Source of the DNA: Geopsychrobacteraceae bacterium
GTDB taxonomy: Bacteria; Desulfobacterota; Desulfuromonadia; Desulfuromonadales; Geopsychrobacteraceae
Direction: 5' to 3'
NCBI GenBank assembly: GCA_963662315.1
Contig: OY759353.1
Coordinates: 32,001 to 96,000, forward strand
DNA length: 64,000 bases
The notes under the pieces were generated by a model, which was given only the letters and a program-made list of their open reading frames with translations, was not told where the DNA came from and did not search any database. The position numbers and the translations under genes are program-made. Positions 1,156 through 28,023 of the stretch are shown here, piece by piece (positions within the stretch are counted from its first letter, which is position 1; each line of letters opens with the position of its first letter).

Positions 1156-1180
1156 AGCTTGTTATCTCCTTGATGCCCGC

Positions 1181-1708: not shown

Positions 1709-1750
1709 GATTTTCTCCTTGGGTTATCTGGTGTCATTGCTGAAAGATTT

Positions 1751-4299: not shown

Positions 4300-4310
4300 G
4301 GACTGGTCCG

Positions 4311-7300: not shown

Positions 7301-7874
7301 GGTGATCATCCTGTTCGGTGGTGTAGCGTCCGGCAGTGTCCAGCAGGACGGCGTCGTTGGAGAACCACCAATCACAGTTACGAGTGCCGCCGAAACCGCG
7401 AATATCGATGTCGCTATCATGGGCATAAGGGAAATTCAGCCCCGAATTGCGTAACAGGGTGGTTTTACCCGCTGCCGACGGACCAATGATCATGAACCAG
7501 GGTAGGGCGTAGAGGGCTGCGTTGCCGCGATGTTGGGCGCCCAGTTCCGAGGATTTCAGGGAGGCGATGGCCTCATTCATTTTGTTGCGTAACTCTTCAA
7601 TTTCCAGTTGTCGCGACTGATCCTGGTCGGAAACCTGGTCCAGGTCTTTGCGGAACAGGTTCGAGCGCTTCTTTACGATCAGGTAGCGTACCAGCCAGAA
7701 CAGGGCAAAGACGAACAGAACTCCGCAGATACTGTAGATACGTACCTGGGCATCGGTCAGCCCGACATAGGGGCCGGCCCACCAGATCAGCGATAGGATC
7801 AACATCAGGCCGATAATGCGTGACCCGACTCGACCAAGGAGATATGCCTGTAAAAATATGAGTATATTCTGCAT
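4311..7874 (-). CDS. tssM: T6SS membrane complex subunit TssM/IcmF
   Basis: N-terminal TM helices, LYALPWFMIIGPSAAGKTT Walker A, GTRNCDWWF, LDTAGRY, GEWSLFHLLD; 1187 aa. Confidence 0.95.
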   Translation of the reverse strand: MQNILIFLQAYLLGRVGSRIIGLMLILSLIWWAGPYVGLTDAQVRIYSICGVLFVFALFWLVRYLIVKKRSNLFRKDLDQVSDQDQSRQLEIEELRNKMNEAIASLKSSELGAQHRGNAALYALPWFMIIGPSAAGKTTLLRNSGLNFPYAHDSDIDIRGFGGTRNCDWWFSNDAVLLDTAGRYTTEQDDHHEWLEFLALLRKHRRQQPLNGAIVAISIADLLTADSKGVDRHVKIIRDRIDELINRLGCVFPIYIVFTKCDLLYGFSAFFADLDEQEREQVWGMWLGHNSAETISSAFSSGIDKLYQRLCEIRLHKLSMVRKAETKSELFNFPGQFEAGKHLLCDFIERLTKENPYQDTPNFCGIYLTSATQEGTPIQKILGQIRQAFGYVDEDPAAALPEPVSFFVKDVFKEVIFPNSKDVNRTRRWGIINRTLKTASILCSLAIMVGAFLMLSTSLTMNSLLLNNGSSAAEGLASLVSSSQQTNIAVQLDAFDSALKHYQTLLANEKKRPLVMTLGVYEGDKQLPGFHKLLINAFEQILFAPAFSDLENQLRKFNSAWAAAPVKKQDAMREEYYQVLKTYQMLIHPEHLDNSYVMAGLNTFISQRFNGQNPNQGYSAERQQMVQALANMYLDQMRLDPQDGDFIAVQEADNALLKVAQKNLKSLPDSKRLYVQLRNTAAKDHEPKKLTDLLGATAGGTLTNTATIPYIYTADGWYQYMKPGMKELIHTACLGDWVTGFDNSSNTANAETVDEKLVQEIEHDIRKLYFKDYAETWLQLLENVSLANFGSVENSSEKLLLLARTDGPIAGLFQAISANINIGEITPLPGELPQGNNRIAELEAPLRDLRKLATPAENMTTSLLINQYLLALTSAQADLEQLAAAVDQQQQAYDYSSAILGGNGASDSELYKCWLTTKSLTNGLNARTRKAASRLLTTPLGYAWQAIIKQTRNYLQNQWNTAVYSSYQKKIAGKFPFDRQGSDASLTDITDFFRGEDGIIWNFTNNQLKPFIRKQGNSWKNQTWLGQGPRISDQFLAALPKAAEISAGLLRQGQPNVNFSIYPIPSSGLRVVRFEANGQKMIYQNEPQEWKHFSWPGTSQNPAATISCMTSGNQSQMGLDFAGEWSLFHLLDKAEITPEDNQYLVSWTLETEFNQQAVIRFKLRPDRQNNAFSRDLFNNFQLPEKIY

Positions 7875-7913
7875 GGTTTATGGCTTTCGTTCGTCTCTGT
7901 ATTGGTTAATTGC

Positions 7914-8636
7914 TCAGGGCTGCAGCGCGGTACTTTTCAGAATGACTTCCCGGGCTGTATCAACCTTGCTGATACTTGCTTCGGCCAGCTTACTGGAAAA
8001 AACCGCATAGCCGATGTAGGTGAAAAATACGACGGCAATGGTGACCACCGCGATCACCCAGTAAGGAACCTGGCGCCGCACCTGGTTGATCAGAGCATGG
8101 GTCGGGCGACCACTGTTGGCCAGGGCGTGATCCATCGGGCCACGGTAACCGTCAATCTGGGCGCGCAGGTCGACCTGCAGAGCCATCAAGTGTTCAATCC
8201 CCTTGATGCGATATACCCCTTCAAAGCCAAGCTGCAGACAGTAGTAAAAGACTTCCAGCAGATTGACGTTCTCTTCCCCCCCCTGACGCAGGGTGGCCAG
8301 GCGGGTGAAAAAGCCCTCCCCGGCGGTATGCTCGCCAAAGAATTCAAGCTGTAGCGGGCGCGCCATCCATTCTTCGCGCTGGGGCCACGATGAATTAAGG
8401 ACCAACTCATCGATAAAGGCAGTCAGGGCATATTTGGCATCTTTCAGCTCGACCATGCCAATCTGCAGGTCAAAGCCTCGCTTGTCGATGGCCGTCAATT
8501 CGTTGAGAATCTGTTCGCGAAAGTCGGCTGGCAGCTTGCTGGCTTTGCGGTCGTCGGACAACGGAGCCGCCAGGGCAAACAGCGGTTCACAACAGTGCAG
8601 GATAGAATTGAAATAGTTTGCAGCAGGTGTTGTCAT
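7914..8636 (-). CDS. tssL: T6SS TssL/DotU
   Basis: AKYALTAFIDE, W..RPLQLEFFGEHTAGEGFF, LEVFYYCLQLGFEG.Y and a C-terminal TM helix. Confidence 0.95.
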   Translation of the reverse strand: MTTPAANYFNSILHCCEPLFALAAPLSDDRKASKLPADFREQILNELTAIDKRGFDLQIGMVELKDAKYALTAFIDELVLNSSWPQREEWMARPLQLEFFGEHTAGEGFFTRLATLRQGGEENVNLLEVFYYCLQLGFEGVYRIKGIEHLMALQVDLRAQIDGYRGPMDHALANSGRPTHALINQVRRQVPYWVIAVVTIAVVFFTYIGYAVFSSKLAEASISKVDTAREVILKSTALQP

Positions 8637-8643
8637 TGTGTCC

Positions 8644-9972
8644 TTACTCCTCCACCGTGACGATTTTTATATCGGCGTTGTTAAATACAGAGGGGCGATA
8701 AATAGCTAAAGCCTCTTCCTTGGTAATCGATTCCCAAAAGTCCCCGCGCGCTTCCAGCCTAAAGTATTCACAACCACTGCGGGTCGACATTTTAGCTGGG
8801 GGACGCTGGGTATGAACCAGCTTAACGCCAGGCAGCGCGGCATTGACCACCATGGTCACGTTGGTATGGGCAGCAACCTTGACCTGGCGGGCAAAATCGA
8901 CGATCCAGTTCGGGTCGTCGTCGTCAAAGAGGACTTCCAGGAAGAAGGTTTCCCGGGTCAGGCGTTCTTTGCCAATGCCGCTGCAATAGAGCAGACTGGG
9001 GCTTTCCTGTATCAGTTCAAGACTGGTTGTGCGGGTCTTGGTCTTCAATTCGAGGAGCACGCTGAGCATACTGTTCAGGGCGGAAAACACCCGGGTCAGG
9101 TCGCTATGGTCATAACTGGGGATGTTGTCGATGGAGGTCTTGTCCTGAAAGGTACAGAAGGCTCCGGCAATCAGGCACAGTTCGCGGTACAGCTGTTCCG
9201 GGTGCAGGTCTGGCCAGCTCTGCAGGTGGCGCAGTTGTGGAATAAAAGTGTTCAGATTGCGTAGCAGGGCATGGTTGTTCGGATCCCGTTCAGCAAAAGC
9301 ACTGACTCCACCGTCACAGTCTTTACGTGCTGCTTCGATCTGTTTGCGTTTGGCATTCAGGGTGTCAATAATTCTTTCCAGTTCCTGAACCAGGGTTGGT
9401 GAGGCGGCGATCCGGCAGGTTGGTGGTACGAAACGAGTGGCCAATTGATAACGGTTATCTCCCTGATGGACGACTTCAGCGATTTTAATGTGTAAAAATG
9501 AGCTGAGAGCCTGCTGGTCGGTCATCAGCATCAGGTTCGGTCTGGCCAGCAATACCTCTTTGACCCGGTTGCCGTCATAAAGATCTTCGAGGGTGCTATA
9601 GTCTGCAATCCAACCACTCATTTGGCCGCGCTGAGGATAGCCACTTATTCCGGCAACATGCTGGTTCGCCGGCACTGCCAGATAGACCGCCAAGGGATCT
9701 CCCCCTGGCGATAACAATTCGCAAGCCAGTTCATGATCGTCGCTGCTGCGCTTCTCGACAAAGCGACCATCCTGAAACAGAGCACGGATCTGGAGCAAAC
9801 GGAAGCGCCCCATAGCCAGAGCTTCATGGTCAACACTCATGGAAATAATTCCCCATTCGAAGGGAGATCCGATGCATTGACGCTGCCGCTGATTGTGCTC
9901 CAGTTGCTGGTCCCAGGCCTGGAAATGTTGTTGGCCAAGGAAAATTCCTTCGGCCCAGACGATTTTTTTCAT
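8644..9972 (-). CDS. tssK: T6SS baseplate subunit TssK
   Basis: KIVWAEGIFLGQQHFQ, HPEQLYREL, YDHSDL and ALPGVKL motifs. Confidence 0.95.
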   Translation of the reverse strand: MKKIVWAEGIFLGQQHFQAWDQQLEHNQRQRQCIGSPFEWGIISMSVDHEALAMGRFRLLQIRALFQDGRFVEKRSSDDHELACELLSPGGDPLAVYLAVPANQHVAGISGYPQRGQMSGWIADYSTLEDLYDGNRVKEVLLARPNLMLMTDQQALSSFLHIKIAEVVHQGDNRYQLATRFVPPTCRIAASPTLVQELERIIDTLNAKRKQIEAARKDCDGGVSAFAERDPNNHALLRNLNTFIPQLRHLQSWPDLHPEQLYRELCLIAGAFCTFQDKTSIDNIPSYDHSDLTRVFSALNSMLSVLLELKTKTRTTSLELIQESPSLLYCSGIGKERLTRETFFLEVLFDDDDPNWIVDFARQVKVAAHTNVTMVVNAALPGVKLVHTQRPPAKMSTRSGCEYFRLEARGDFWESITKEEALAIYRPSVFNNADIKIVTVEE

Positions 9973-10026
9973 ATGTTTATCTTTTATGTGTTGTCGTTAC
10001 CACGCGGTTTACAAAATGGTTTTCTG

Positions 10027-10494
10027 TCATTCTTCGATGTCAATATGGTGCTCTTTTAATAGGGCTTTAATAGTTGTTGATAGGTCGATCCATAAAAAGG
10101 ATCGATCGACATCTCTGATAACTTTCCAGGATTCATCCGGTTGCTGGTGAAACGCCGCCATAATGCCGACATATTTGGCCTTTTCATTTTTTTCGATAAT
10201 GATTTTTTTCTCAGACGCCGGGTCCAGGGTCAGCGATTCTTTACGCAGTAACGTATCTCTTAAAACGGTCAGGTCGGATTTCCACAATTCCTCAAAACTG
10301 GCTTCTTCAAAGGTCTTTTTGTCGCTGAGTTGGTAGATATTGATTACTACCGGCAGAGGTTCTTTGGCTTGATTCAGATTAAGGGTTGCTGTCGATGCCA
10401 GATCAATTTTGACTTGTGGCGCTGAACATCCGGTCAGGGATAACAGGCAAAATGAAACAACCGCGATAGTGAAAAATGAACTGTTCATTCTCAT
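10027..10494 (-). CDS. tssJ: T6SS lipoprotein TssJ
   Basis: Lipobox LSLTGC after a signal peptide; LN....PLPVVINIYQL and YVGIMAAF motifs. I moved the start from 10632 to ATG 10494 so the signal peptide is N-terminal. Confidence 0.9.
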   Translation of the reverse strand: MRMNSSFFTIAVVSFCLLSLTGCSAPQVKIDLASTATLNLNQAKEPLPVVINIYQLSDKKTFEEASFEELWKSDLTVLRDTLLRKESLTLDPASEKKIIIEKNEKAKYVGIMAAFHQQPDESWKVIRDVDRSFLWIDLSTTIKALLKEHHIDIEE

Positions 10495-10534
10495 CGTAAA
10501 GATCCTTTTTAATGTGAATAGGGGGCTGGCGATT

Positions 10535-11071
10535 CTATTGTCTAGAAGAATGCTGCAAGCGTTTGCCGCGCTGTTGGTCGTAGGCTTTACTGAAGCCAGC
10601 GACAACGAGTTGTTGATGGCGCAGATAGTCATTGGTCAGGAAAGCGCAAAGACGCTTCTTGAAGGTACGCCAGATAAATATTGGGCGGCCAAACAGTTTG
10701 GAGCAATGGGAACGGGTTGTCAGTGGACTGAGCTGTTCGAGGGTCTCGGCAGCTATACCATCAAGAGCTGCACACAGAGCCAGATTGTGCTCAATAATGT
10801 CACTGAGCAAGGCACTGAGGTGGGTTGCACCATGCTGATCATCACGCAGCCAGTTTTTAATGACTTGTCTGGTGTCGTTATTGCGAAGGACCTCCGCAGA
10901 GTGGCGAAAGACACGGTTAAAAGGCAAGCCAAACTCGTTGGCAAAGCTTTTTTGTCCGTCAACGAGTTTAATTAAACCGTTGACAATAACGCGTGACGAA
11001 GCCCTGCGTTTACCAGATATGGACTCTGTGGGTATTGTTTTGCAAACAGAATTGGATAATGAAGCGACCAT
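10535..11071 (-). CDS. Protein resembling the C-terminal domain of T6SS FHA protein TagH, with no FHA domain
   Basis: DIIEHNLALCAALDG...LEQLSP...W..F...GFSKAYDQQ pattern recalls the TagH C-terminus. First gene of the operon; ATG 11071 follows a G-rich RBS. Confidence 0.6.
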   Translation of the reverse strand: MVASLSNSVCKTIPTESISGKRRASSRVIVNGLIKLVDGQKSFANEFGLPFNRVFRHSAEVLRNNDTRQVIKNWLRDDQHGATHLSALLSDIIEHNLALCAALDGIAAETLEQLSPLTTRSHCSKLFGRPIFIWRTFKKRLCAFLTNDYLRHQQLVVAGFSKAYDQQRGKRLQHSSRQ

Positions 11072-11104
11072 GGTATCCCCCCCGAATACCAAAAACGACA
11101 ACAA

Positions 11105-11500: not shown

Positions 11501-13864
11501 TTGTCAATATCTGCTGCTCAGTCACGCCTGACCGTCCGGGTCGGTGGTGCTGATTATGCCGTCGTATCTGTGACCGGGCAGGAAGCCTTTAACCGCCCGT
11601 TTTCTTTTGCCCTTGAACTCGTCGTGCCCGGTTATCAGTCGCTCACCAACCAGTTGGGCAGCGGCGTTCGCCTGTCGATGTTGGCGACCAGCGGTCAGCA
11701 GCGCACCGTCTTCGGTCTGGTCACTCAGGTTGCTCATGTTATGGGCCTGCCCGATCAGCGGCAGCTGTGGCGTCTTGAAGTCAGTTCACATCTGTACCGT
11801 TTGCAGCAGGTGAGCGATACCCGTCTGCTGCTCGATCACAGCCTGCCTGAGATTATTCAACGGCTGTGCAACCGCCATGGGCTTGATGACAATGCCCTGT
11901 TCTGTGACTGGGGACAGAGTTACCCGGCCCGGCCGACCACCCTGCAGGCTGGCGAAAGCGACTTTGATTTTCTCGCCCGCTTATGCAGTCGGCACGGCAT
12001 CCTGTTCTGGTCAGCGGCCAGTGACGAACAGGAAGTGCTCCATTTTGCCGACACGGCCAGCCATTGCCGACCGCTGGCGCGTCCGGCGCTTGAGTATCGG
12101 GCCAATGCCGGGCTGGACCATGATGCCACTGACAACGATGTGCTGACCATGGAACTGGGGGCGCAGCTGGTCAGTGACTGCTATCTGGTCCACGACGTCG
12201 CTGAATCAGCACCGGGACAGGCCCTGCTCAGCGAGCGCCAGCTGCCAGGCGCTGGCAAATCCGCTTATGGGACCACCTTGGTCCGCACTGGGCGCGGTGT
12301 GACCAGTACCGATGAAGCCAGTGCGGCGACCGAGTTGTTGGCCCATATCGGGGCAGCGCAACAGCAGAAACTGACCATCACCAGCCATGCCGTCGATCTG
12401 CGTGTCGGGCGCATCGTGCGCATTGACGCGGACCGTTTTGGCAGCGGCATCAGTGGCGATTACCTGATCACCGGAATGACCCATAAACTCCATCAATATG
12501 CCGGCCTCGGCCTGGGTGGCGACAGTGATTGCCCCTACAGCAACGCGGTGGTTTTGGTGCCGCGCGAAACACCTTACCGGGTGCCTGAAAGCAAACGCCC
12601 CAAAGTGCCCCTGGCGGTAACCGCACGCATAGAAAGCAAAGACCCAACAGCCCAACTGGACAGCGCCGGACGGACCCGTTACCGTCAGCATAACGACAGC
12701 CTGACAAAACCCTTCGCCCAGAACAGCATCTTCACGCGGCGCCTGCAACCCTATGGCGGCACCGGAAACGGCCATCAGCCCGGCTTCCACACCCCGCTGC
12801 AGGATGGTGCTGAAATTCTGGTCAGTTGCCTGAACGGCGATCCCGACCGCCCGGTTATTATCGGCAGCCTGCCCAACCCGGAAACCCCGTCCCCGGTCAG
12901 CGCCAGCAATGCCGCCCAGAATCGTCTGCGCAGCGCCAATGATCAGGAACTCTTGCTCGATGATACCATCGACGCACCCATCATCACCTTGCGCACCTTC
13001 GCCGGTCACAATATGCTGCACCTCAACGCCAGCAAGGCCGAACACCTGATCCGCCTGGCTACAGAGCAGGGCCTGGCTGCGTTCTACGCCAAACAGACCC
13101 TGAACACCACCAGTGGTGATACCCTGACCGAAACCGTCGGCAATAACCGCATCCAGGTGGTGGAAGACCGTCACCAGACCATCACCAACAGTGCCGAAAT
13201 CCACCACCAGTCGGCTACCGACGTGCTGCTGCGCGGTGCCAACAATATCCAGCTTGAGGCGGGTGAAAATACCGAGTTTGAAGCCGGTAACGATATGCGT
13301 ATCGATATCCGCGAAGCCATGAACATCAAGGTAGATGGCAGCTCCGCGGCTATCAATATCAACAGCGGCAGCATGATCCTCGATACCAGCGGCGCCATCA
13401 AAATACAAGGTGACGGTGGAGGTGATATCTGCATCGGCCAGGCCGGTGGAGGCATCAAAATGGACCCATCCGGCAACATCACCCTGTTCGGCACCAACGT
13501 CAACTTTGCCGGAACCGTCAGCATGAGCGGCACGATCAACATGGACGTCACCAGCCCGCCGAGTGTCAGCTTGGCCAGTGGTGTGGCGGCGACGGCGGCC
13601 ATTGGGATAACGGAATTAATAGACCAGGCGACCACAAGGCAAGTTGATGAACCTTTCGATCTGACCATAAATATTACTGACAACTACATGAATCAACTAC
13701 CCGGCCACTTTGAAGAACTCAAAGGTCTTCGCTGGGAATTCACCAGTGACTGTGGTGATGAGCGTAGTGGCGTGATTGATAGTCACACCGTTGTGGTCAA
13801 AGGCGTCAGAATCCGCGAATATTATGAATTCGGCATTGAGAACATGCCGATTCATCTTGATTAG
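11501..13864 (+). CDS. vgrG: T6SS spike protein VgrG/TssI with a C-terminal extension
   Basis: GQEAFNRPFSF, QAGESDFDFLARL...GI and P...GAEILVSCLNGDPDRPVIIGSLPN motifs, followed by beta-rich repeats and a ~75-aa extra C-terminal domain. Confidence 0.92.
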   Translation: MSISAAQSRLTVRVGGADYAVVSVTGQEAFNRPFSFALELVVPGYQSLTNQLGSGVRLSMLATSGQQRTVFGLVTQVAHVMGLPDQRQLWRLEVSSHLYRLQQVSDTRLLLDHSLPEIIQRLCNRHGLDDNALFCDWGQSYPARPTTLQAGESDFDFLARLCSRHGILFWSAASDEQEVLHFADTASHCRPLARPALEYRANAGLDHDATDNDVLTMELGAQLVSDCYLVHDVAESAPGQALLSERQLPGAGKSAYGTTLVRTGRGVTSTDEASAATELLAHIGAAQQQKLTITSHAVDLRVGRIVRIDADRFGSGISGDYLITGMTHKLHQYAGLGLGGDSDCPYSNAVVLVPRETPYRVPESKRPKVPLAVTARIESKDPTAQLDSAGRTRYRQHNDSLTKPFAQNSIFTRRLQPYGGTGNGHQPGFHTPLQDGAEILVSCLNGDPDRPVIIGSLPNPETPSPVSASNAAQNRLRSANDQELLLDDTIDAPIITLRTFAGHNMLHLNASKAEHLIRLATEQGLAAFYAKQTLNTTSGDTLTETVGNNRIQVVEDRHQTITNSAEIHHQSATDVLLRGANNIQLEAGENTEFEAGNDMRIDIREAMNIKVDGSSAAININSGSMILDTSGAIKIQGDGGGDICIGQAGGGIKMDPSGNITLFGTNVNFAGTVSMSGTINMDVTSPPSVSLASGVAATAAIGITELIDQATTRQVDEPFDLTINITDNYMNQLPGHFEELKGLRWEFTSDCGDERSGVIDSHTVVVKGVRIREYYEFGIENMPIHLD

Positions 13865-13878
13865 AATAGAGCCGTATC

Positions 13879-16710
13879 ATGGAACCGAATCAATCTGAGA
13901 ATCCAGCTATTCAGAAAATCAAACAAAAATTTACTGCCGGGAAAATCACTGTAGGCTGCCAGCTAAAAATGATACCGGCAGTGATCCTGCATCCATCCTT
14001 GGGGGCACCGCTGGTCGTCGAGCCAGGCAAACCGGTCAGCCTGTTTATCGTGACCGATCAAACCTTCAAAAAGGAATTCATGAATGGCAATGGCCAGGAT
14101 GATCACAAACTGGCCAAAGGGGGCAGCAATATTGCCGACCTGATTATGCAGCATCTGAAAATTTTGCTCTGGGATCAGGCCAATACGCTAAAAAAGAACC
14201 TGGAACAAGCCGACGAGGTCTCGCTGAAGAAGATAGTCACTAAGGAACACATCAGCGTTACTTATCTGGGCGAATTGGACGAGCGTCTGGAAAATGCCGA
14301 AGGTCAGCATTTTGCCAATCTGCGCGATAGCCTAAAAAACGATTTCGTCGGTTACAATGAAGGTGGTGAGCGTCACGGCTTCTGGCACAGGTTTTTCTTC
14401 AACGATGGCATCAGGCATCTTTTTCAGATCGACCTTGATCAGGCCACGTTAACCGCAGGAAAGATGTACGATTGTTTCTGGCTGCTGACTAATCTGGAGC
14501 CAAAGGAAGGGGATTCCCAGGAAAAGTATCTCGATATTCAGGATCGTTTGACCCGTGACTATTTCCAATCCCGCTACTATGAGTACTGTGAAGAAAAAGC
14601 GCCACTACATGCGTTCAAGGTGACGGAGGAGGGCGTTGATTTTACCGCGTTTGATCCGGATACGCCAATCCAGACCCGGCATCCGGTATATGTGCTGCCC
14701 GCAGACAAGAGAAAACTGAACCTCGGACATCTGAGCGATATTCATGTCTCGGCAAAACAGCATCTGTACAAAGGGAAAAAAGCCACCGTCATCCCCGGTA
14801 CGGACAGCAATGTGTCTCCACTCATTGGAACATTGGTCAATAATAATATCGACAACCTGTTCAACCTGCTTGAGCAGTTTGGTCAAGGCGAAAATGAAGT
14901 CGATGCCGTCGTCATCACCGGTGATCTCTACGACCACATGCATAACTTTGATCCGGCTAAACTTGCAAACAACGCCACCACAGGACAGTTATGGGAAACC
15001 CTTTATGTTGACAGCATCAAAGAGGTCAAGGCCCAAAATGGCAGAATCCCCTGCGGTATTGACGGCCTCGCGGTTTACAGTATCATTTGTCACTTTTATA
15101 AGACCTACGGAAAACCAATTTTTATTGTTACTGGTAACCATGAGGCTTACGAATATCCTTATGGCATTTCGCCACGTGTGGGTTCTTTCCGGCCTAATGA
15201 CGGAATCCCCCTCGACCACAACCTGACCTTTTACGAAGCGATCCTCATGTATGGTCCCGCTTATAAGATTCTGGTTCCCGGCGTTGTGAACAGTGCAGCA
15301 TCGGAACTGACCAATACCTATATCGGCCAGGCCAACTTTAATGCCAAAAATTTCGACTGGTTCTACAACGTCTTTACGCCGCTAACCGACTATGCGATGC
15401 GCTTTGCTGACCAGTGTCTCATCGGCTTGGGCTGGGGGGATGGGGAAAAACTGGTCAACATCACGGTCCTGCCGGCTAGTAACGGTGGTACATTGCCGAG
15501 AGCGACGGAGAGTGTCAACGATGACCAAATTCGGATGAAAGAGTCTTTCATCAACAAGGACAGTCTGGACAGTAAGGAAGAAACCCGAATTCTGTTGAGC
15601 CACTTCACGCAGGCCAATTACGCCCTGGAATGCCCACTGGCCGAACAGGGCGAGATCAACGGCAACGATTTCTTCGAAACCTATTCATCCTACGATCATG
15701 GCTCGGTTCGCGATGGCCGGGCAACGCTGTACGGCGAATGGATCGGTGAAAATCATTTCGATTACACCCTGTCCGGCCATTCCCACCGGGTAGGTTTGTA
15801 CCGCTGCGACAGCTACGAATCGAATATAATAGGACGCAAGACCCTGAAAATTACAGCTGAATATCCTGACCAAAGAACCTCATTGACGAGTGGTAATTGG
15901 GCAGGCAAAACCAAGCTGCTGGTTTCGGCCAGTACTGGGCCGGTTCCCAAGCAGAACCATACCGGGGAAATGAGTTGCCAAGGGATGGAAACCCCGTCGG
16001 GCAGTCGAATCATCCTAAATGGCAATGAGACCATTGAGGTTATTACCAGTAAACGGGATTCAGCGAAGCCCCGCTTTTGTGTTGCCTGTGACTATATTGA
16101 CATTATGGGTGGCGGATTCTGGGAGTATTTCCGCGCTGTTGGCTCTGATGGAACCTTTGAGATGAAACCCTACTGGGAGAAAATTCATCCGGATTTAAGC
16201 GATGCTGCCAAAGAGGCACTGATTGAAAGCATCTCCCTGTATTCAGTCGGTGATTTTGGTGCAAAACCTCCAGATCAATCAAAAGCAACATTGCATGGAA
16301 AATCCCTGCGATTTAAATTTTCAAATACCCTGGCCGACAAAATGAAACCGAATAAAAGTTCATCTACTTCCATAACCTTTGTTTCCATTAAGTTTAATGG
16401 GGGAATAATCAGTTCATTGGCGGGATTCAAAAATTATGATTTTGACTCTTCCTGGAATATACAGGTAGAACTGTACAATAAAGTCTATGAAGATGGCATG
16501 AAAAAAATCGCGTTGAGAACAGGTTTAGATTATGAGTATTTGCATACAGACTCTGAAATTGAGAAGCTGATCAAGAGAAGAGACTCTAATAAGTTGGAAG
16601 ATTTTTCAATTAGGAGACATATGAAAGACGGTGAAATACCAAGCTTTGACTGGAGAGCCGAAACAAATTATTCAGAATATGGATATAAACTTAAGAAAAT
16701 GAAAAAATGA
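13879..16710 (+). CDS. Calcineurin-like metallophosphoesterase-domain protein, candidate T6SS effector
   Basis: Ordered motifs SDIH, TGDLYD, TGNHE, LLSH and SGHSH. No signal peptide. Starts 14 bp after the vgrG stop. The effector role is inferred from context. Confidence 0.8.
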   Translation: MEPNQSENPAIQKIKQKFTAGKITVGCQLKMIPAVILHPSLGAPLVVEPGKPVSLFIVTDQTFKKEFMNGNGQDDHKLAKGGSNIADLIMQHLKILLWDQANTLKKNLEQADEVSLKKIVTKEHISVTYLGELDERLENAEGQHFANLRDSLKNDFVGYNEGGERHGFWHRFFFNDGIRHLFQIDLDQATLTAGKMYDCFWLLTNLEPKEGDSQEKYLDIQDRLTRDYFQSRYYEYCEEKAPLHAFKVTEEGVDFTAFDPDTPIQTRHPVYVLPADKRKLNLGHLSDIHVSAKQHLYKGKKATVIPGTDSNVSPLIGTLVNNNIDNLFNLLEQFGQGENEVDAVVITGDLYDHMHNFDPAKLANNATTGQLWETLYVDSIKEVKAQNGRIPCGIDGLAVYSIICHFYKTYGKPIFIVTGNHEAYEYPYGISPRVGSFRPNDGIPLDHNLTFYEAILMYGPAYKILVPGVVNSAASELTNTYIGQANFNAKNFDWFYNVFTPLTDYAMRFADQCLIGLGWGDGEKLVNITVLPASNGGTLPRATESVNDDQIRMKESFINKDSLDSKEETRILLSHFTQANYALECPLAEQGEINGNDFFETYSSYDHGSVRDGRATLYGEWIGENHFDYTLSGHSHRVGLYRCDSYESNIIGRKTLKITAEYPDQRTSLTSGNWAGKTKLLVSASTGPVPKQNHTGEMSCQGMETPSGSRIILNGNETIEVITSKRDSAKPRFCVACDYIDIMGGGFWEYFRAVGSDGTFEMKPYWEKIHPDLSDAAKEALIESISLYSVGDFGAKPPDQSKATLHGKSLRFKFSNTLADKMKPNKSSSTSITFVSIKFNGGIISSLAGFKNYDFDSSWNIQVELYNKVYEDGMKKIALRTGLDYEYLHTDSEIEKLIKRRDSNKLEDFSIRRHMKDGEIPSFDWRAETNYSEYGYKLKKMKK

Positions 16711-17858
16711 ATTTATATAAACAATATTTCTTTATATCAACCATATTAATATTCATTTTAACTTTTAATGTCTCAGGATATGCGATGACAATATTCAAGA
16801 ATGACTTTGAAAAAAAATGGGAAGAGCTGTCAAATAATATTGAAAAACTCAACGAGTACGCAAAGAATACTTCCGTTGAGTTGCGTAATTTAAAGGTTGA
16901 AGACAAAATACTTGATGGTGCAATTTTTACAGACGCCACATTCGATGGGGTTGAATGGCAAAATACAAGCCTCGAAGAAACCTATTTCACAAAAACAATC
17001 TTTAAAAACTGCAAATTTATCAACACAAAAAACTGGAACAGTACTTTGACAGATGTTTTGTTTGAAAACTGCACATTTTATGGTGTGGAGTTCGGTGGTA
17101 GTGCGATGGTTAACGTACGTTTCAAGAGGTGTAAATTTGCAGATACTCGATTAAAAGAATTGACAGGAAACGAACTTGTTGTGGAGGAGAGTATGCTTGA
17201 AGAAAAAACTTCGTTAGCCTGGTCAAGCATTCCAATGTTGTTTCGGAAATGTACACTTGATGGCGTTGGTTTGTCTGGAATGAAGCAACCTAATAGCATG
17301 ACTATTGAAGATAGTGTTTTAGATGAAGTTGATTTCAGCAGAGGCCTTTTTTCTTCTATAACCTTCCGTCGCGTCAAGCAGGGTGAAGGACCCATCAGGT
17401 TTAATTCGATAACTGCTGATACGCTTGAATTTGATGATGTTGATCTGACCAGAGGGGTCGGAATCGCCTACAGCAAAGTCAAATTGGTGAAGATCGTTAA
17501 CGGTCGTTTTGGAGCAGCATTTGAAGGGTCGACCATCGCAAAGGTTGTTGCCCGGGACGTGTACCTGGTCAATATCGACTTCAGTGAAGCCGTTATGCCT
17601 TCTGTCAGTATGAACCACTGTGAACTGCTCGATCTGGCACTGTGGGATTCAACGATTATCGAATTTTCCATTATGGATTCGTCGATCAACATCGCCAACG
17701 GCAAAAACTTCAAAGGCGACACAGTTGTCTGGGACAGCGTCACCCTGGATGGCAAAATCGATTTTTCCAACGCCAAAATTGAAGACTTCCGTCCTACCCG
17801 GTTGAAACGTGGACCAAAACTGAATTTGATCACGACTGGGTCGAACCTGAAGTTCTGA
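16707..17858 (+). CDS. Exported pentapeptide-repeat protein, candidate immunity protein (paralog A)
   Basis: Signal-peptide-like N-terminus (..VSGYA) and 5-residue repeats (AIFTD ATFDG; TIFKN CKFIN; VLFEN CTFYG). ATGA overlap with the effector stop. Confidence 0.8.
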   Translation: MNLYKQYFFISTILIFILTFNVSGYAMTIFKNDFEKKWEELSNNIEKLNEYAKNTSVELRNLKVEDKILDGAIFTDATFDGVEWQNTSLEETYFTKTIFKNCKFINTKNWNSTLTDVLFENCTFYGVEFGGSAMVNVRFKRCKFADTRLKELTGNELVVEESMLEEKTSLAWSSIPMLFRKCTLDGVGLSGMKQPNSMTIEDSVLDEVDFSRGLFSSITFRRVKQGEGPIRFNSITADTLEFDDVDLTRGVGIAYSKVKLVKIVNGRFGAAFEGSTIAKVVARDVYLVNIDFSEAVMPSVSMNHCELLDLALWDSTIIEFSIMDSSINIANGKNFKGDTVVWDSVTLDGKIDFSNAKIEDFRPTRLKRGPKLNLITTGSNLKF

Positions 17859-18168
17859 TGAGAGCTCGATGCATTTGCATAGTTTTCGTTGTTTTGCTAA
17901 TGCCCGTGGAGTGTTTTGCAATGTCTTCGGATGTCGGTGATTTTCAGACTGGCTGGTCTGAATTAATAAAAGATGTAGATAAAATCAATGAATACACTGC
18001 AATGCATCCAAATGTAAAATTGGAAAGTATTAAAATAGAAAATTTAGATATTGATGGTGTTATTTTTAATGGGGCATTTTTTGAAGGGGTAATATTTAAT
18101 AATGTTTCTTCAAATAAATCAGACTATAGAGATGTAGAATTTAGAAATTGTAAATTTATTAATTTCAA

Positions 18169-19866
18169 CCTGAATCCGTGAGGTAGCCAGTCGGCACTTT
18201 CACGCTTTGCCTGCGAACCCATTTTCGCAGTCAATTTTGATTCAAAGCTGACCTGATCTACTCCGATGAGCACAGGTAGCTACGTTCTTTGACAATTCAG
18301 CTGATTATTTTTTCGTTCGTCTTGCTCCTTTGTAAATTGAGGACGTGCGTGACTGTGCACGTCCTTGGCCGCGGTATTTTTCAGCACTGTACTGATGCGT
18401 TTCGACATTAGTCATAGGCAAAATGCTCATAGGTCTTGATGAAAGCCTGTGCCTGCCTGATCGCATGGCAACTGAATCGCAGCATCAAGCCATGGGCGTG
18501 ACGAAGAAATCGGGCAGCGAAGTACATCAAATCCTGCAGTACGGTTTTGAGGCGCCGACGCTGTTTGGCTCGACGGGCCTGTTTTTTGTCCATCAGACCG
18601 ACCTGGCCGATGGCCCGCAACAGATTGTACGCCAGCCCGGCACAGCTCATCACCAGAGCGTTGGTCGCAAGCTTGCCCGATGGCAGCCGCTCCAGATCCA
18701 GGTCGGTCTTGAGTTCGGAATGATACTGCTCGCACAGGGCATGCCCCTTGTAGAGTTCGATGATCGTCTCCTTGTTGCTGGAGAGACTGGTCCACCAGCC
18801 TTCAATCTCGATATCGGGAACCAGAAGTGGACCGTTTCGATCAAACCAGCGCTCAGAGGCACGCAGAACACGACGTACCTTGATGGTTTTGTCTTTGCCC
18901 TCGCCATCGTTGTAGGTTCGTTCAACCGTTTCCGTCATGATGGCGATCCGTTCGTCCTTGGTGTCTTTCACCAGCTTGCCGTGGGCAAAGATTTCCGTGG
19001 CTTTGATCGGAACATCGGTGTTGCGCGGATTCCATTTGATGATGAAGTCGGCCTTCTGCTCTTTCAGGGCGATCAATGTCGCCAGGGCATCATGGGCGCT
19101 GTCCAGTCGCACCAGCAGTGGGGCGTCGGTTAGCTGATGGGCTTTGTGCAAGGCCCGTAACAGCAGAGGGATAAATCCTTCCTGAGCATGCTGGGAACCG
19201 GGACGCTGTTCGATCTCCAAACACCAGCCTTCCAGTCCCAGCCAGACACCAAGAGGGGCGTAACCGTTAAAGCCTCGATACGTGTAGGAGACACCCTCTT
19301 TCTTGGTGTCCGAGTTGTCGAGAGTGAAAACATCCAGATCAAGAGGCATATGCCCAGTGGACAATGGCGAGAGTTGTGCCTTGGCTTTCTTGAGAAACTC
19401 CACCGAACAGAAGTCGACGATGATCCGCAAGACCTCGGCGAACTGATCGAGACGCTGCCGCAATGTTTCCTGTGAGGGCGTTTTGGTTAGCCCCAACGAG
19501 GTCCGAAAAAACTCATCGTCCTCAAAAAAAGGATGGATAGCGGCAAAATCGCTTTTACCCTGACAGAGCAGACCCAGATAGCTGCGCAGGACATCGGACG
19601 TGGCGATTCCCCGTTTGGGAGCCGCTTTATCGACCCGCGAAGCCAGCGAGGTATAGCGATTCAATGCCACACCGACCAGAGCCAGGCCAGACTGAGAGGT
19701 GTAAAATTCCTGCTTTGACTGCTCAAGCTTGAACCGGGGAAATGTCACAACCAAAACTCCTTGGGTGAAATTCGATGCGATTCAAGAATAGCAGAAAAGC
19801 ACTGTAAAATCAGCTGATTGTCAAAGATCGAAAACAGTTTTAAGTTTGTTACCTCACGGATTCAGG
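18169..19866 (-). mobile_element. IS1380-family insertion sequence, copy 1 (1698 bp)
   Basis: Perfect 17-bp terminal inverted repeats CCTGAATCCGTGAGGTA/TACCTCACGGATTCAGG and a 4-bp target duplication TCAA (18165-18168 and 19867-19870). Confidence 0.93.
18408..19754 (-). CDS. IS1380-family DDE transposase (copy 1)
   Basis: TSQSGL, LDLD, GYAPL, RLDSA and EQYHSELKTDLDLERLPSG...N motifs; 448 aa. Confidence 0.92.
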   Translation of the reverse strand: MVVTFPRFKLEQSKQEFYTSQSGLALVGVALNRYTSLASRVDKAAPKRGIATSDVLRSYLGLLCQGKSDFAAIHPFFEDDEFFRTSLGLTKTPSQETLRQRLDQFAEVLRIIVDFCSVEFLKKAKAQLSPLSTGHMPLDLDVFTLDNSDTKKEGVSYTYRGFNGYAPLGVWLGLEGWCLEIEQRPGSQHAQEGFIPLLLRALHKAHQLTDAPLLVRLDSAHDALATLIALKEQKADFIIKWNPRNTDVPIKATEIFAHGKLVKDTKDERIAIMTETVERTYNDGEGKDKTIKVRRVLRASERWFDRNGPLLVPDIEIEGWWTSLSSNKETIIELYKGHALCEQYHSELKTDLDLERLPSGKLATNALVMSCAGLAYNLLRAIGQVGLMDKKQARRAKQRRRLKTVLQDLMYFAARFLRHAHGLMLRFSCHAIRQAQAFIKTYEHFAYD

Positions 19867-19875
19867 TCAATGAAA

Positions 19876-21574
19876 CCTGAATCCGTGAGGTAGCCAAACA
19901 GCACCTCTTCTGTTCGGCTGCGAACTCACTTTCGCAGCCGATTTGCTATCAAGGCCGGACGGGTTGACTTAGATTTGCCTGGGCGGCCATGCTCTTTGAC
20001 AATTCAGCTGATTGAATTTTTCGTTTTTCTCACTCCTTGGCAGATTGCGGGTATGCATGATCGGTCACGTCCCTGGGCGCGAGATTTTTCAACACTGTCT
20101 TGATGCAATCAGGTATCAGTCATAGGCAAAATGCTCATAGGTCTTGATGAACGCCTGTGCCTGTCTGTGGACATGGCAGCTGAACCGCAGCGCCAAACCA
20201 TGGGCGTGACGAAGAAACCGGGCGGCAAAGTACATCAAGTCTTGCAAGACGGTTTTGAGACGCCGGCGCTGTTTGGCTCGACGGGCCTGTTTTTTGTCCA
20301 TCAGGCCGACCTGGCCGACAGCCCGTAGTAAATTGTAGGCCAGTCCGGCGCAGCTCATCACCAAGGCGTTGGTGGCAAACTTGCCGGATGGCAGCCGCTC
20401 CAGATCCAGGTCGGTCTTGAGTTCGGAGTGATACTGTTCGCACAGGGCATGCCCCTTGTAGAGTTCGATGATCGTCTCCTTGTTGCTGGAGAGACTGGTC
20501 CACCAGCCCTCGATCTCGATATTGGGAACCAGAAGCGGCCCATTCCGGTCAAACCAGCGCTCTGAGGCACGCAGTACGCGACGCACTTTGATGGTTCTGT
20601 CGTTGCCATCGTCATCTTTGTAGGTCCGTTCGACGGTTTCCGTCATGATGGCGATACGCTCGTCTTTGGCGTCTTTAACCATTTTCCCATGAGCAAAGAT
20701 TTCCGTGGCCTTGATTGGAACATCAGTCTTGCGCGGATTCCATTTGATGATGAAGTCGGCCTTCTGCTCTTTCAGGGCGATCAAAGTTGCCAGGGCATCA
20801 TGGGCGCTGTCCAGTCGCACCAGCAGTGGGGCGTCGGTTAGCTGACGGGCTTTGTGCAAGGCCCGTAACAGCAGAGGGATGAATCCTTCCTGAGCATGCT
20901 GGGAACCGGGACGCTGTTCGATCTCCAAACACCAGCCTTCCTGTCCCAGCCAGACACCAAGAGGGGCGTAACCGTTAAAGCCTCGATACGTGTAGGAGAC
21001 ACCCTCTTTCTTGGTGTCCGAGTTGTCGAGAGTGAAAACATCCAGATCAAGAGGCATATGCCCAGTGGACAATGGCGAGAGTTGTGCCTTGGCTTTCTTG
21101 AGAAACTCCACCGAACAGAAGTCGACGATGATCCGCAAGACCTCGGCGAACTGATCGAGACGCTGCCGCAATGTTTCCTGTGAGGGCGTTTTGGTTAGCC
21201 CCAACGAGGTCCGAAAAAACTCATCGTCCTCAAAAAACGGATGGATAGCGGCAAAATCGCTTTTACCCTGACAGAGCAGGCCCAGATAGCTGCGCAGGAC
21301 ATCGGACGTGGCGATTCCCCGTTTGGGAGCCGCTTTATCGACCCGCGAAGCCAGCGAGGTATAGCGATTCAATGCCACACCGACCAGAGCCAGGCCAGAC
21401 TGAGAGGTGTAAAATTCCTGCTTCGACTGCTCAAGTTTGAACCGGGGAAATGTCACAACCAAAACTCCTTGGGTGAAATTCGATGCGATTCAAGAATAGC
21501 AGAAAAGCACTGTAAAATCAGCTGATTGTCAAAGATCGAAAACAGTTTTAAGTTTGTTTACTCACGGATTCAGG
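19876..21574 (-). mobile_element. IS1380-family insertion sequence, copy 2 (1699 bp)
   Basis: Terminal IRs CCTGAATCCGTGAG/CTCACGGATTCAGG. No flanking target duplication (GAAA left, TAAC right). Confidence 0.92.
20116..21462 (-). CDS. IS1380-family DDE transposase (copy 2)
   Basis: 448 aa; 16 substitutions relative to copy 1 by my manual comparison. Confidence 0.92.
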   Translation of the reverse strand: MVVTFPRFKLEQSKQEFYTSQSGLALVGVALNRYTSLASRVDKAAPKRGIATSDVLRSYLGLLCQGKSDFAAIHPFFEDDEFFRTSLGLTKTPSQETLRQRLDQFAEVLRIIVDFCSVEFLKKAKAQLSPLSTGHMPLDLDVFTLDNSDTKKEGVSYTYRGFNGYAPLGVWLGQEGWCLEIEQRPGSQHAQEGFIPLLLRALHKARQLTDAPLLVRLDSAHDALATLIALKEQKADFIIKWNPRKTDVPIKATEIFAHGKMVKDAKDERIAIMTETVERTYKDDDGNDRTIKVRRVLRASERWFDRNGPLLVPNIEIEGWWTSLSSNKETIIELYKGHALCEQYHSELKTDLDLERLPSGKFATNALVMSCAGLAYNLLRAVGQVGLMDKKQARRAKQRRRLKTVLQDLMYFAARFLRHAHGLALRFSCHVHRQAQAFIKTYEHFAYD

Positions 21575-22309
21575 TAACAGGCAATGAGCTTGTTATTGAA
21601 AACAGTACTCTTGAAGAAAGAACATCGTTGGCATGGTCGAGCATCCCTATGGTATTTCGTAAGTGTACATTGGATGGGGTTGGATTGTCTGGAATGAAAC
21701 AGCCTAATAGCATGATAGTTGAGGATAGTTATCTCGATGAAGTAGATTTTGGGCGAGGTCTTTTCTCCACCGTCACTCTGCGTCGTGTGAAACAGGGGGA
21801 AGGACCGGTACGCTTCAATGGTGCAACCATGGAGAGCATTAGGATAGAGGATGTTGATATGTGGCGCGGGTTATCGCTGGCGGAAATTAAGGCAGGGCTT
21901 GTCAGTATTGAAGGGGGAACGTTAAAAACTGCGTTTTCTGATTCTATCATTCCGAAAGTTTATGCAAGGGGGGTAGAATTTTATCTCTTCTCGCTGAGTG
22001 AGGCCAATTTGCCATATGTTTCACTGATCGATTGCATGATCCATGATTTCCCTCTGTGGGACGGTTTTGTCGAGGAACTGCTTGTGCAAAATTCTATCAT
22101 TGGTGAGATTGATGGAGAAAACTTCAAAGCCGACACTGTCGTCTGGGACAATGTTACCCTCGACGGAAAAGTTGATTTGACCAACGCCCATATCAACGAT
22201 TTCCGCCCAACCCGCATTAAGCGCGGCCCCAAGCTGAATCTGATGACTACCGGTTCAAATATTAAATTCTGATGCCCAGGAAAAGCAAGCCTGCGTCATC
22301 CCCTCTGAT

Positions 22310-22363
22310 CCGCAGAGCCTGAAGGGAGCCCCCTCGATTTCTCAAGACCTTCAGGCTCTGCGG
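22310..22363. repeat. Perfect 16-bp inverted repeat with a 22-nt loop
   Basis: CCGCAGAGCCTGAAGG (22310-22325) and CCTTCAGGCTCTGCGG (22348-22363); no U-tract. Confidence 0.85.
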
Positions 22364-26560: not shown

Positions 26561-28023
26561 GTAAACGTTCCGCCAAGCCTCACTTGTTGAACATATCGTA
26601 GATGTCGTAGGCTTCGCCCTATGACATCTACAAATGACCTGACAATTCTCAAGACCGATACCCTCGGTCGTCGTGAGCCTCCCAGCCCGGAACAACGTGA
26701 TGCGTGGCTGGATGAATTTGAACGCACCAGCATGAGCGGAGCCGCTTTTGCACGGCTCCATGGTATTCGTTATACAACCTTTGCCCATTGGCGGAAGGTA
26801 AGCAGACAGCAACGATAAGAGGTTGAAACAAAGCCCACTGAATTTTTCGAAGAGGTTAAAGATCGTCGCCCCCATCCTGAAGCAAGCGGGTTAAACATCT
26901 CTCTGCCAGGCGGTGCCAACGTCACGGTGACCCGGCCGGAGCAGTTTTCCCACTGGTCGCAGCCCTGCTGACAGACGGCATTGACCTTAAGGGGGCTAGA
27001 ATGCGGCCCTGGTACGAGCGTGAATAGCCGTCCAAAAGGTGCTGAAAATCTTTCTTTTTTCTTCCAGAACTTCCTGAAATTCTGCATCTTTAAGTCATAA
27101 AAAAGTCTGATACTATCATTCGTCAAAAACAAGAAATTCAGTCGCTACGCGAAGAAAACCACCTGCTGCGTTTGAATGTTGATGCTCTGGTCCGCCGTAT
27201 GTTTGGTGGCGGTCAAAGTGAAAAACTTCCCAGCAACCAACTGGAGATGTTCGACGACGACGCACCGGGGAAGACCCAGGCTTGCGCTGAAAAAACGACA
27301 GAAGCGCAAGCCGTGAAAAAGGCCCGAAAGAGCCAACCCCGTTGGCCCCTTTATCCCGAAAACCTTCCTGTTGTCGAGGAGATCCTTGATCCTGAAGCCG
27401 TTAAGGCGAATCCATTGCATTACCGTCAGATTGGCCAAGAAGTCAGTGAGCAGCTCGACTATGAGCCGGGGCGTTTTTTCCTGCGTGAACAGATACGCCG
27501 CACTTGGGTGAAACGCAACGCTCCCGATACCATCCCTGTCACCGCTCCTCTGCCACCCATACTTTTTGAGCGTGGCCTCCAGGCTCTCGGACTTTTAGCC
27601 TATATCGTCATCGGCAAATATGCCGATCATCTAAAGCCGACTGCGCAAGCAACACGTCAGCCCTGCATTACGTGCTGTCGTGCGCGCCTGGTAAAGTCCC
27701 CGATCCTTGATCGCCTTTTGGTCGTCTTTGATCACATGCTCAGAAGCGGCACCTATAAACCGAAGACCATCACCGGCACAGCCATCGCCTATGCCCTGCG
27801 TCAACGCGAGGGACTTCAAGTCTACGTTGATCAGGGGCCGGTAGAGATCGACAACAGCCTTGTCGAAAATGCCATCCGTCCGGCTGATATTGGTCGCAAG
27901 AACTGACTGTTTATCGGTGATGAAGATGCCGGATGGCGCAGTGCTGTCATCTATAGCATCTTGCAAAGCTGTAAAATTCAAGGTATCGATCCCTACACCT
28001 ACCTCAAGGACGTTCTCGAACGA
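26561..28023 (+). mobile_element. Decayed IS66-family element (tnpA with internal stop, tnpB 3' scrap, deleted and interrupted tnpC)
   Basis: GTAA-starting end at 26561. tnpA: FERTSMSGAAFARLHGI.YTTFAHW, continuing past TAA to GLNISLPGG. tnpB tail: DGIDLKGARMRPWY. tnpC: RMFG...SEK, IGQEVSEQLDYEP, IDNSLVENAIRP..IGRKN*LFIG, GIDPYTYLKDVL. Confidence 0.85.

Follow-up and report, generated by a model that had tools for sequence, protein, structure and literature searches.

The DNA analysed here, referred to as the window, is a stretch of 64,000 nt (positions 32,001 to 96,000 of contig OY759353.1 from a Geopsychrobacteraceae bacterium). It contains a cassette of four plus-strand genes that is divergent from minus-strand core genes of a type VI secretion system (T6SS). 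The cassette encodes, in order, VgrG, a 943-aa metallophosphoesterase (MPE) and two pentapeptide-repeat proteins (PRP-A and PRP-B). It probably represents a toxin-immunity system of an uncharacterised family, where MPE is a VgrG-loaded phosphodiesterase toxin that acts in the periplasm and PRP-A is the immunity protein. This reading is built on the observed gene order, motifs, folds, leaders and conserved linkages. Below, labels such as L003 denote related loci, labels such as P0098 denote homologous proteins, and G000:C1 is a contig of the genome that carries the window. The features of the cassette up to PRP-A are as follows.

Positions 11501–13864, plus strand: vgrG, 787 aa (Phage_GPD, 3.8e-45; TIGR01646, 133 bits against a cut-off of 121.8).
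Positions 13646–13861, plus strand: C-terminal domain of VgrG, ~75 aa (aa ~716–787), found by BLASTP and jackhmmer; proposed MPE docking site.
Positions 13879–16710, plus strand: MPE open reading frame (ORF), 943 aa (Pfam Metallophos).
Positions 13879–14700, plus strand: N-terminal domain of MPE (aa 1–274), beta-rich in the model and leaderless; proposed loading domain.
Positions 14701–16113, plus strand: catalytic core of MPE (aa 275–745) with five calcineurin-like motifs, assigned by the Metallophos match, invariant ligands and fold.
Positions 16114–16710, plus strand: C-terminal domain of MPE (aa 746–943) and stop codon, a variable region marked by a drop in identity to L003.
Positions 16707–17858, plus strand: PRP-A, 383 aa (Pentapeptide_4, 1.5e-20); proposed cognate immunity protein.

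The TAG stop codon of vgrG ends at position 13864 and the next ATG is at 13879, which leaves a 14-bp gap. This confirms the coordinates of the two genes and the spacing described in an earlier reading made from the letters alone (the sequence-only reading). MPE and PRP-A overlap by an ATGA at positions 16707–16710, and PRP-A and PRP-B by a TGATG at 17856–17860. The two translationally coupled PRP paralogs described earlier are thus present with both overlaps, but PRP-B is not intact and is split by two insertion sequence (IS) elements of the IS1380 family. MPE has properties of a T6SS cargo effector in that it is encoded beside vgrG and has no Sec or Tat leader. The PRPs resemble immunity proteins in forming a conserved pair directly beside the effector gene.

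A scan of one genome per species gave 67 loci related to MPE, 66 of which are distinct (L043 overlaps L007). Gene calls in these loci are longest ORFs. The nearest relatives of the MPE locus are in metagenome-assembled genomes (MAGs) of Geopsychrobacteraceae. T6SS linkage was counted on the 52 loci with more than 400 nt upstream, with VgrG, DUF4123, PAAR, DcrB and TssF/TssG/ClpV as markers. Such markers are found upstream in 30 of the 52, with VgrG in 19, a stand-alone protein that ends in the VgrG tail domain in 9 and only DcrB or PAAR in 2. The nine stand-alone tail proteins are 260–305 aa in length, and the one in L018 is behind TssF, TssG and ClpV. A DUF4123 adaptor is encoded between VgrG and MPE in L040, L060 and L061, and PAAR and DcrB are present in L023 and L058. 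PRP linkage was counted on the 51 loci with more than 600 nt downstream, based on a phmmer PRP match within 300 nt of MPE. A PRP adjoins MPE in 45 of these loci, 38 by phmmer and 7 added by Pfam (L020, L034, L035, where it is upstream, L036, L060, L066 and L068). The PRPs are duplicated in L016, L031, L040 and L053. A survey of homolog neighbourhoods had been proposed with the sequence-only reading, and vgrG/PAAR and pentapeptide genes are recurrent in it.

The C-terminal end of VgrG has a distribution that links it to MPE. The last ~72 residues of the window VgrG align with the C-terminal ends of the ~300-aa proteins whose genes immediately precede MPE in L013 and L018 (BLASTP, 2e-9 and 6e-5). 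When the ORFs of all loci were searched by jackhmmer with VgrG residues 701–787 as the seed, 22 of them matched, and every match ends within -88 to +35 nt of an MPE start. A comparison of the window with L003 shows 40–72% identity in the VgrG body, whereas the last 80 residues are 92–95% identical and MPE residues 1–760 are 75–100% identical. As the VgrG tail and the effector share high identity with L003 while the VgrG body does not, the two appear to be inherited together as one module. The VgrG tail is a predicted loading site for the N-terminal domain of MPE. The assignment of MPE as a T6SS effector, first made without database searches, agrees with the upstream markers, with the presence of the tail domain and with the leaderless MPEs.

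Some loci have additional genes at this position. One Acidiferrobacteraceae MAG has three MPE-PRP cassettes that are paralogs of one another (L010, L011 and L012). The gene immediately before each of them encodes an FG-GAP repeat protein of 1377–1807 aa in place of VgrG; this genome encodes TssC, with a best match that contains a TGA. In L022 (2113–7158) and L031 (2070–7121), the docking-domain protein and MPE come after a protein of 1681–1683 aa that contains an OmpA-like domain in its interior. In L053 (2631–3617) a Tli4_C (Tle4 immunity) homolog is located between the end of VgrG and the MPE-PRP-PRP genes, which suggests that this island stacks more than one effector-immunity system.

MPE matches the Pfam family Metallophos (PF00149) at residues 282–637 with an E-value of 1.1e-10 (42.7 bits, cut-off 21.5). 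The five calcineurin-like motifs that had been read from the translation are all located, and in order: SDIH (286–289), GDLYD (348–352), GNHE (419–422), LSH (573–575) and GHSH (633–636). Residues D287, H289, D349, N420, H421, H575, H634 and H636 are invariant in 61 aligned homologs. This invariance of the metal ligands implies that the family is catalytically intact, and the MPE core is predicted to be an intact two-metal phosphoesterase. A word-indexed search gave 136 relatives at E <= 0.001, with PF00149 present in 118 of 120 among the matches listed. A profile search of 1.84 billion representatives gave 681 proteins at E <= 0.001 and 376 at E <= 1e-30, the latter being family clusters counted at 50% identity. 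No other Pfam family is found in MPE at E <= 0.01, i.e., there is no lipase or HKD/PLD (phospholipase D) domain, and there is no NCBIfam or PADLOC match and no tblastn match in phage or plasmid collections. A phmmer search of the PDB with the single protein gave no matches, and the MPE profile gave only phage Gp54 (E 0.072) and SbcD (E 0.2), neither of which is significant. Residues 1–274 have no Pfam match, and a protein atlas gave no usable match for residues 1–274 or 746–943.

An AlphaFold model of MPE has a pLDDT of 85.8 and a pTM of 0.90. The top Foldseek matches of the 943-aa model, a search suggested by the sequence-only reading, are metallophosphoesterase-fold enzymes, namely purple acid phosphatases, SMPDL3A, Rv0805 and GpdQ. 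Alignment of the core by VIA-align gives Z 18.6 for Rv0805 (250 residues, rmsd 3.6), Z 17.7 for GpdQ (240 residues, rmsd 3.4), Z 16.4 for the ADP-ribase-like protein 2nxf (251 residues, rmsd 3.4) and Z 16.0 for Lmo2642 (283 residues, rmsd 4.1). Purple acid phosphatases, SMPDL3A/B and acid sphingomyelinase match the model by both methods. At Z >= 8 there are 51 PDB representatives, and the best 50 of 51 are all of the metallophosphoesterase fold, led by Rv0805. The modelled core is thus phosphodiesterase-like and closest to Rv0805 and GpdQ, with a substrate that is not fixed by the fold. It shares with these class III phosphodiesterases the same five-motif two-metal site, and they are its best fold match over 240–250 residues, but the identity is 14–18% and MPE has large insertions and extra N-terminal and C-terminal domains. 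The N-terminal 274 residues are beta-rich in the model, mostly with pLDDT above 85. Purple acid phosphatases and PhoD align to the model from residue 41–44 onwards, so that the modelled N-terminal beta domain packs as in these two-domain enzymes.

PRP-A scores 73.5 bits with Pentapeptide_4 (cut-off 38) and is over the Pfam cut-offs for three pentapeptide families. Its leader consists of MNLYKQ followed by a hydrophobic stretch that ends in GYA-M. The model has a pLDDT of 94.6 and shows a leader helix, two short helices and a beta-helix over residues 58–375. The first part of this beta-helix (residues 58–235) is a right-handed quadrilateral beta-helix with four short strands per 20 residues, and the second (236–375) is a wider solenoid. 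The N-terminal half aligns to solved pentapeptide-repeat proteins at Z 15–16.7, with Z 16.7 to 6fls and 16.3 to NP275/276, and the whole length matches generic right-handed beta-helices. Qnr, MfpA and AlbG, which are protein inhibitors of an enzyme, have the same quadrilateral beta-helix (Z 15–15.8). They differ from PRP-A in being cytoplasmic and ~180–220 aa in length, whereas PRP-A is 383 aa, is exported and has the wider C-terminal solenoid.

A simple hydrophobicity window, together with inspection of the sequences, was the basis for calling leaders. Both window paralogs have the signal-peptide-like N-termini noted earlier, with a charged n-region and a hydrophobic stretch that ends in A-M. 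A crude hydrophobic-leader test is passed by 35 of 48 PRP rows (two rows are duplicates). On inspection, the rows include leaders of the signal-peptidase type. Lipoboxes are present in PRPs of L023, L037, L040, L057, L065 and other loci, and RR motifs in L040, L053 and L067. The absence of a signal peptide in the 943-aa protein was also correctly described, and none of 46 full-length MPEs has a true leader; four that pass the threshold do so by a conserved internal strand at residues ~30–45. Homologs of MPE have fused domains of several types: Peptidase_M23 (P0098, P0101, P0109, P0158), LysM with or without BACON (P0103, P0163, P0188), OmpA-like (P0161, P0192) and PG_binding_1 (P0161, P0175). 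A peptidoglycan-related domain is present on 6 of the 28 N-terminally extended homologs scanned, and small PG_binding_1 proteins are encoded directly upstream of or near MPE in 8 loci. Together this makes four peptidoglycan-related domain types, three binding and one M23 peptidase. An unexported enzyme, an exported partner and four independent peptidoglycan-related domains point to action in the periplasm beside the wall. The envelope target suggested in the sequence-only reading gains support from the same fusions and from the export of most PRPs.

The matches to SMPDL3A/B and acid sphingomyelinase may also be read as signs of an anti-eukaryotic effector, similar to a sphingomyelinase or phospholipase C, that acts on host or grazer membranes while the PRP has another role. 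MPE homologs are present in Legionellales and Coxiellaceae MAGs, which is in keeping with this. However, the tight pairing with an exported partner, the orphan modules described below and the peptidoglycan-binding fusions point to inter-bacterial use, and an anti-eukaryotic role is very unlikely.

The C-terminal region of MPE and the PRPs vary between loci. MPE residues ~760–943 are only 25–52% identical between the window and L003, and the L003 PRP is 30–78% identical to PRP-A. L004 has a 659-aa MPE module that covers residues 298–935 and is 80–100% identical from about residue 320. The C-terminal half of the L004 PRP is 92–100% identical to PRP-A and the N-terminal half 15–32%. The gene order in L004 is a 1739-aa VgrG, three tandem DUF7738 genes, a short VgrG fragment and the 659-aa MPE module (119–7844); the first ~700 residues of this VgrG are 62–95% identical to the window VgrG. 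L007 (5531–18658) and L043, which are on one contig, have VgrG, a full MPE, a split PRP, three orphan MPE modules and further fragments. The three orphan ORFs start at query residue 415–416, i.e., at the GNHE motif, and each is followed by a PRP gene. No other 30-residue stretch of the family is as conserved as the GNHE block. Orphan-like proteins with only the C-terminal part of MPE account for at least 13 of the top 150 representatives.

The genome that carries the window has a second T6SS island at ~1.94 Mb (G000:C1 1932000–1950000, L075). It encodes a 2196-aa VgrG-Rhs fusion on the minus strand (10947–17537 in L075). Behind it come fragments of IS3-type transposases, the C-terminal part of a PRP, a 100-aa piece of the MPE C-terminus (9215–9517) and an intact 379-aa PRP (8064–9203), the last being a proposed orphan immunity module. 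The MPE piece is closer to L003 (65% identity) than to the window MPE (38%). The type of MPE C-terminus tracks the PRP type in three contrasts (window/L004, window/L003 and orphan/L003), which is taken only as a hint. Orphan modules, mosaics and variable C-termini, as seen in these alignments, are habits of polymorphic toxin-immunity systems. Arrays of orphan toxin-immunity modules are found in Rhs and CDI (contact-dependent inhibition) systems. The 5'-truncated MPE modules of L007/L043, each with its own PRP gene, resemble these arrays, with truncation at the most conserved block; they differ in that the break point is inside the catalytic domain at GNHE and not at a boundary between delivery and toxin regions. 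The immunity function proposed in the sequence-only reading is consistent with the adjacency of PRP and MPE, the arrays of orphan MPE C-termini with PRPs, and the orphan remnant in the same genome.

The PRPs might instead be accessory components of the T6SS or co-secreted partners of MPE. Pentapeptide-repeat proteins are known as accessory components, such as the TagAB/DUF2169 proteins that are encoded in T6SS loci, according to the available parts of two papers (PMC13584744, PMC7714669). PRP-A differs from the TagAB/DUF2169 proteins, as these excerpts describe them, in its export signal and in having an enzyme, not PAAR-like proteins, as its partner. By Pfam and NCBIfam there is no DUF2169 domain in PRP-A or the PRP-B fragments, and PRP-A has no other adaptor domain. 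The export signals put the PRPs in a compartment other than that of spike loading, and orphan arrays, duplications and mosaic recombination are a pattern of immunity genes. An accessory function is accordingly quite unlikely.

Several observations weigh against a T6SS toxin that acts in the periplasm and is neutralised by a PRP. Six of the 51 loci have no PRP neighbour (L039, L044, L052, L054, L059 and L062), and 22 of the 52 show no T6SS marker within 6.8 kb. TssC is encoded in 7 of 10 genomes tested whose loci have no nearby VgrG; there is no TssC match in the other 3, which are incomplete MAGs or, in one case, have the locus beside another contractile-injection baseplate. Seven of the 48 PRP rows are leaderless (L021, L025, L029, L035, L038, L051 and L066), a misfit with purely periplasmic immunity. 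Across 66 pairs from 12 cassettes, sequence identity in MPE regions correlates weakly with that in PRP halves (Spearman 0.44–0.75), and ancestry confounds the comparison. The fold similarity of MPE does not discriminate between substrates, and Mre11/SbcD nucleases also align to the model at Z 13–15.

The locus in L039 (387–13990), from a Leptospirales MAG, is of a different kind. A 1213-aa MPE homolog is encoded between gp25-like, Baseplate_J and tail-fibre (Peptidase_S74/G2) genes, with no PRP beside it and no TssC match in the genome. This homolog may be a cargo or tail enzyme of another contractile injection system or of a prophage.

Qnr and MfpA inhibit gyrase as DNA mimics. MPE could by analogy act in the cytoplasm as a nuclease similar to Mre11/SbcD or a nucleotide hydrolase similar to ADP-ribase, with the PRP as an inhibitor that mimics DNA or substrate. 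The nuclease alignments, the 2nxf match, the resemblance of PRP-A to Qnr, MfpA and AlbG, and the leaderless PRPs are compatible with this, and the PRPs are mildly acidic (median pI 5.45). But a leader, a lipobox or an RR motif is present in most PRPs, including both in the window; MPE homologs have peptidoglycan-related domains of four kinds, either fused to them or encoded next to them; and the top folds are Rv0805 and GpdQ, not nucleases. Action in the cytoplasm is thus unlikely.

The loci with no nearby T6SS marker could also be taken to mean that MPE has a housekeeping role as an envelope phosphoesterase, that its beta-helix partner is a regulator and that the pair is beside vgrG by chance. 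Against this, the VgrG-tail domain is exclusive to the upstream neighbour of MPE, and DUF4123, PAAR and DcrB are encoded near MPE in some related loci. The GC content is 0.396 over positions 16001–18000, compared with 0.45–0.57 across the remaining window, which makes the PRP genes compositionally foreign, and the gene structure is mosaic. As no MPE has a leader, there is no Sec route for the enzyme to the envelope. A housekeeping function is extremely unlikely.

The VgrG-loaded toxin remains the preferred reading, and its secretion, toxicity, compartment of action, substrate and neutralisation are predicted as follows. The beta-rich N-terminal domain of MPE (aa 1–274) would dock on the ~75-aa C-terminal domain of the VgrG that is encoded upstream. 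After injection, MPE would work in the periplasm of the prey at or near the peptidoglycan layer and hydrolyse an essential phosphodiester or pyrophosphate. The wall-binding domains make a lipid-linked wall precursor, such as lipid II or undecaprenyl pyrophosphate, the first guess for the substrate. The SMPDL3/GpdQ-like fold makes a membrane phospholipid head group the second. Phosphodiesterases can act on wall polymers, as shown by PhoD and GlpQ, which degrade teichoic acid. PRP-A would be exported by Sec to the periplasm of the producer, where its right-handed beta-solenoid of ~320 residues would bind and block MPE. A more extended proposal is possible but doubtful: that this is the first metallophosphoesterase-fold antibacterial toxin family, widespread, delivered by the VgrG tail, tethered to peptidoglycan and cleaving lipid II or undecaprenyl pyrophosphate, with the first known pentapeptide-repeat beta-solenoid immunity protein and with new specificities that arise by orphan-module swaps at GNHE.

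The remaining features of the cassette and its surroundings are as follows.

Positions 1–11104, minus strand: T6SS core genes by Pfam, tssC (partial), tssB, tssA, tagF, tssM, tssL, tssK, tssJ and an ORF with an FHA C-terminal domain.
Positions 17858–18167, plus strand: PRP-B 5' fragment with the leader and first repeats (Pentapeptide_4, 5.3e-5; alignment to PRP-A).
Positions 18168–19867, minus strand: IS1380-family element copy 1, transposase at 18408–19754 (NF033539, 2.1e-88; 18-nt perfect terminal inverted repeats).
Positions 19875–21575, minus strand: IS1380-family element copy 2, transposase at 20116–21462 (DDE_Tnp_1_4, 3.8e-20; terminal repeats).
Positions 21576–22272, plus strand: PRP-B 3' fragment, which aligns to PRP-A from residue ~154 to the end.
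Positions 22310–22363, no strand assigned: perfect 16-nt inverted repeat past the last cassette gene, found by repeat search; possible transcript end.

The core genes have Pfam matches to VipB (1.7e-123), VipA (5.8e-55), DotU (6.1e-58), VasE (1.3e-107) and SciN (6.7e-27), with T6SS_FHA_C at 3.8e-7 and further matches to VasJ/ImpA_N, TagF_N and IcmF domains. The hairpin at positions 22310–22363 was not called by a consensus terminator scan.

PRP-B, one of the two proposed immunity genes, is a pseudogene. It is broken after about codon 103 (~18167) by the two tandem IS1380-family elements and resumes at ~21576 to end at 22272, without ~44 codons that are equivalent to PRP-A residues ~110–153. 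The assignment to the IS1380 family is by NF033539 (296.7 bits, cut-off 180) and terminal inverted repeats of 15–18 nt. Elsewhere in the 4.71-Mb genome there are six more elements that are ~100% identical to copy 1, and copy 2 is 91% identical to it, which suggests that the disruption is recent. Two further pairs of these elements within 4 kb of each other are present on G000:C1 at ~1.715/1.719 Mb and ~2.918/2.921 Mb, so that this element seems prone to insert in tandem or in pairs. An IS66-family transposase fragment at positions 27172–27906 (DDE_Tnp_IS66, 1.3e-12) likewise points to mobile DNA close to the cassette. The last ~165 aa of PRP-B are identical to the orphan PRP at ~1.94 Mb on G000:C1. 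PRP-B may formerly have been a second immunity gene of another specificity type, recently destroyed by the two insertions and the ~44-codon deletion.

The Tle/Tli systems of T6SS consist of a vgrG-linked leaderless phospholipase and an exported periplasmic immunity protein, with duplicated immunity genes. The window cassette is similar in its vgrG linkage, in its proposed leaderless effector, exported immunity protein and duplicated immunity genes, and in a likely membrane or envelope phosphoester target. It differs from Tle1–5 in that MPE has no GxSxG lipase or HxKxxxxD (PLD) domain and only Metallophos, and in that the immunity protein is a pentapeptide beta-solenoid and not of the Tli fold. 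T6SS effector-immunity cassettes are already known; the novelty here, as far as the searchable literature shows, lies in the class of enzyme that would serve as the toxin and in the fold that would provide immunity.

TelC of the type VII secretion system and a colicin M/pyocin-like T6SS effector of Yersinia pseudotuberculosis are described as lipid II-degrading toxins in the available parts of PMC5555719, PMC6193138 and PMC11237486. As far as these excerpts go, the proposed action of MPE is similar, i.e., cleavage of a phosphate linkage in a lipid-linked wall precursor outside the cytoplasm with extracytoplasmic immunity, but MPE is unrelated in fold and family and its substrate is a predicted one. 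In the searchable full-text literature, which excludes subscription journals and supplements, no characterised T6SS metallophosphoesterase effector was found. The pairing with pentapeptide-repeat proteins had been thought uncharacterised, and the searchable literature gave only one in-silico mention, which concerns metallophosphatase-domain proteins after vgrG. The accessible text of a Neisseria genomics paper reports unverified predicted 'metallophosphatase' proteins downstream of VgrG (PMC12046857); there is no Neisseria locus among the 67 related loci. For pentapeptide repeats and immunity, the searchable text gave only the DUF2169/TagAB accessory proteins, a note on TseG (PMC10933656) and a transmembrane-linked pentapeptide protein beside Min-Wnt domains (PMC12419801), each as far as the source is available. 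In a survey of polymorphic toxins (PMC3482391), the 300,000 characters of available text contain neither 'pentapeptide' nor 'calcineurin'.

The MPE family is large, is found mostly in uncultured environmental bacteria and has no solved relative by sequence. Should the family be confirmed, the VgrG-tail domain could be a small recognisable marker for finding further cargo effectors. Confirmation would also give the pentapeptide-repeat fold a new role, that of an exported inhibitor of an enzyme. The toxin would then kill at the bacterial envelope by a new chemistry, which might offer another means of attacking lipid-linked wall precursors.

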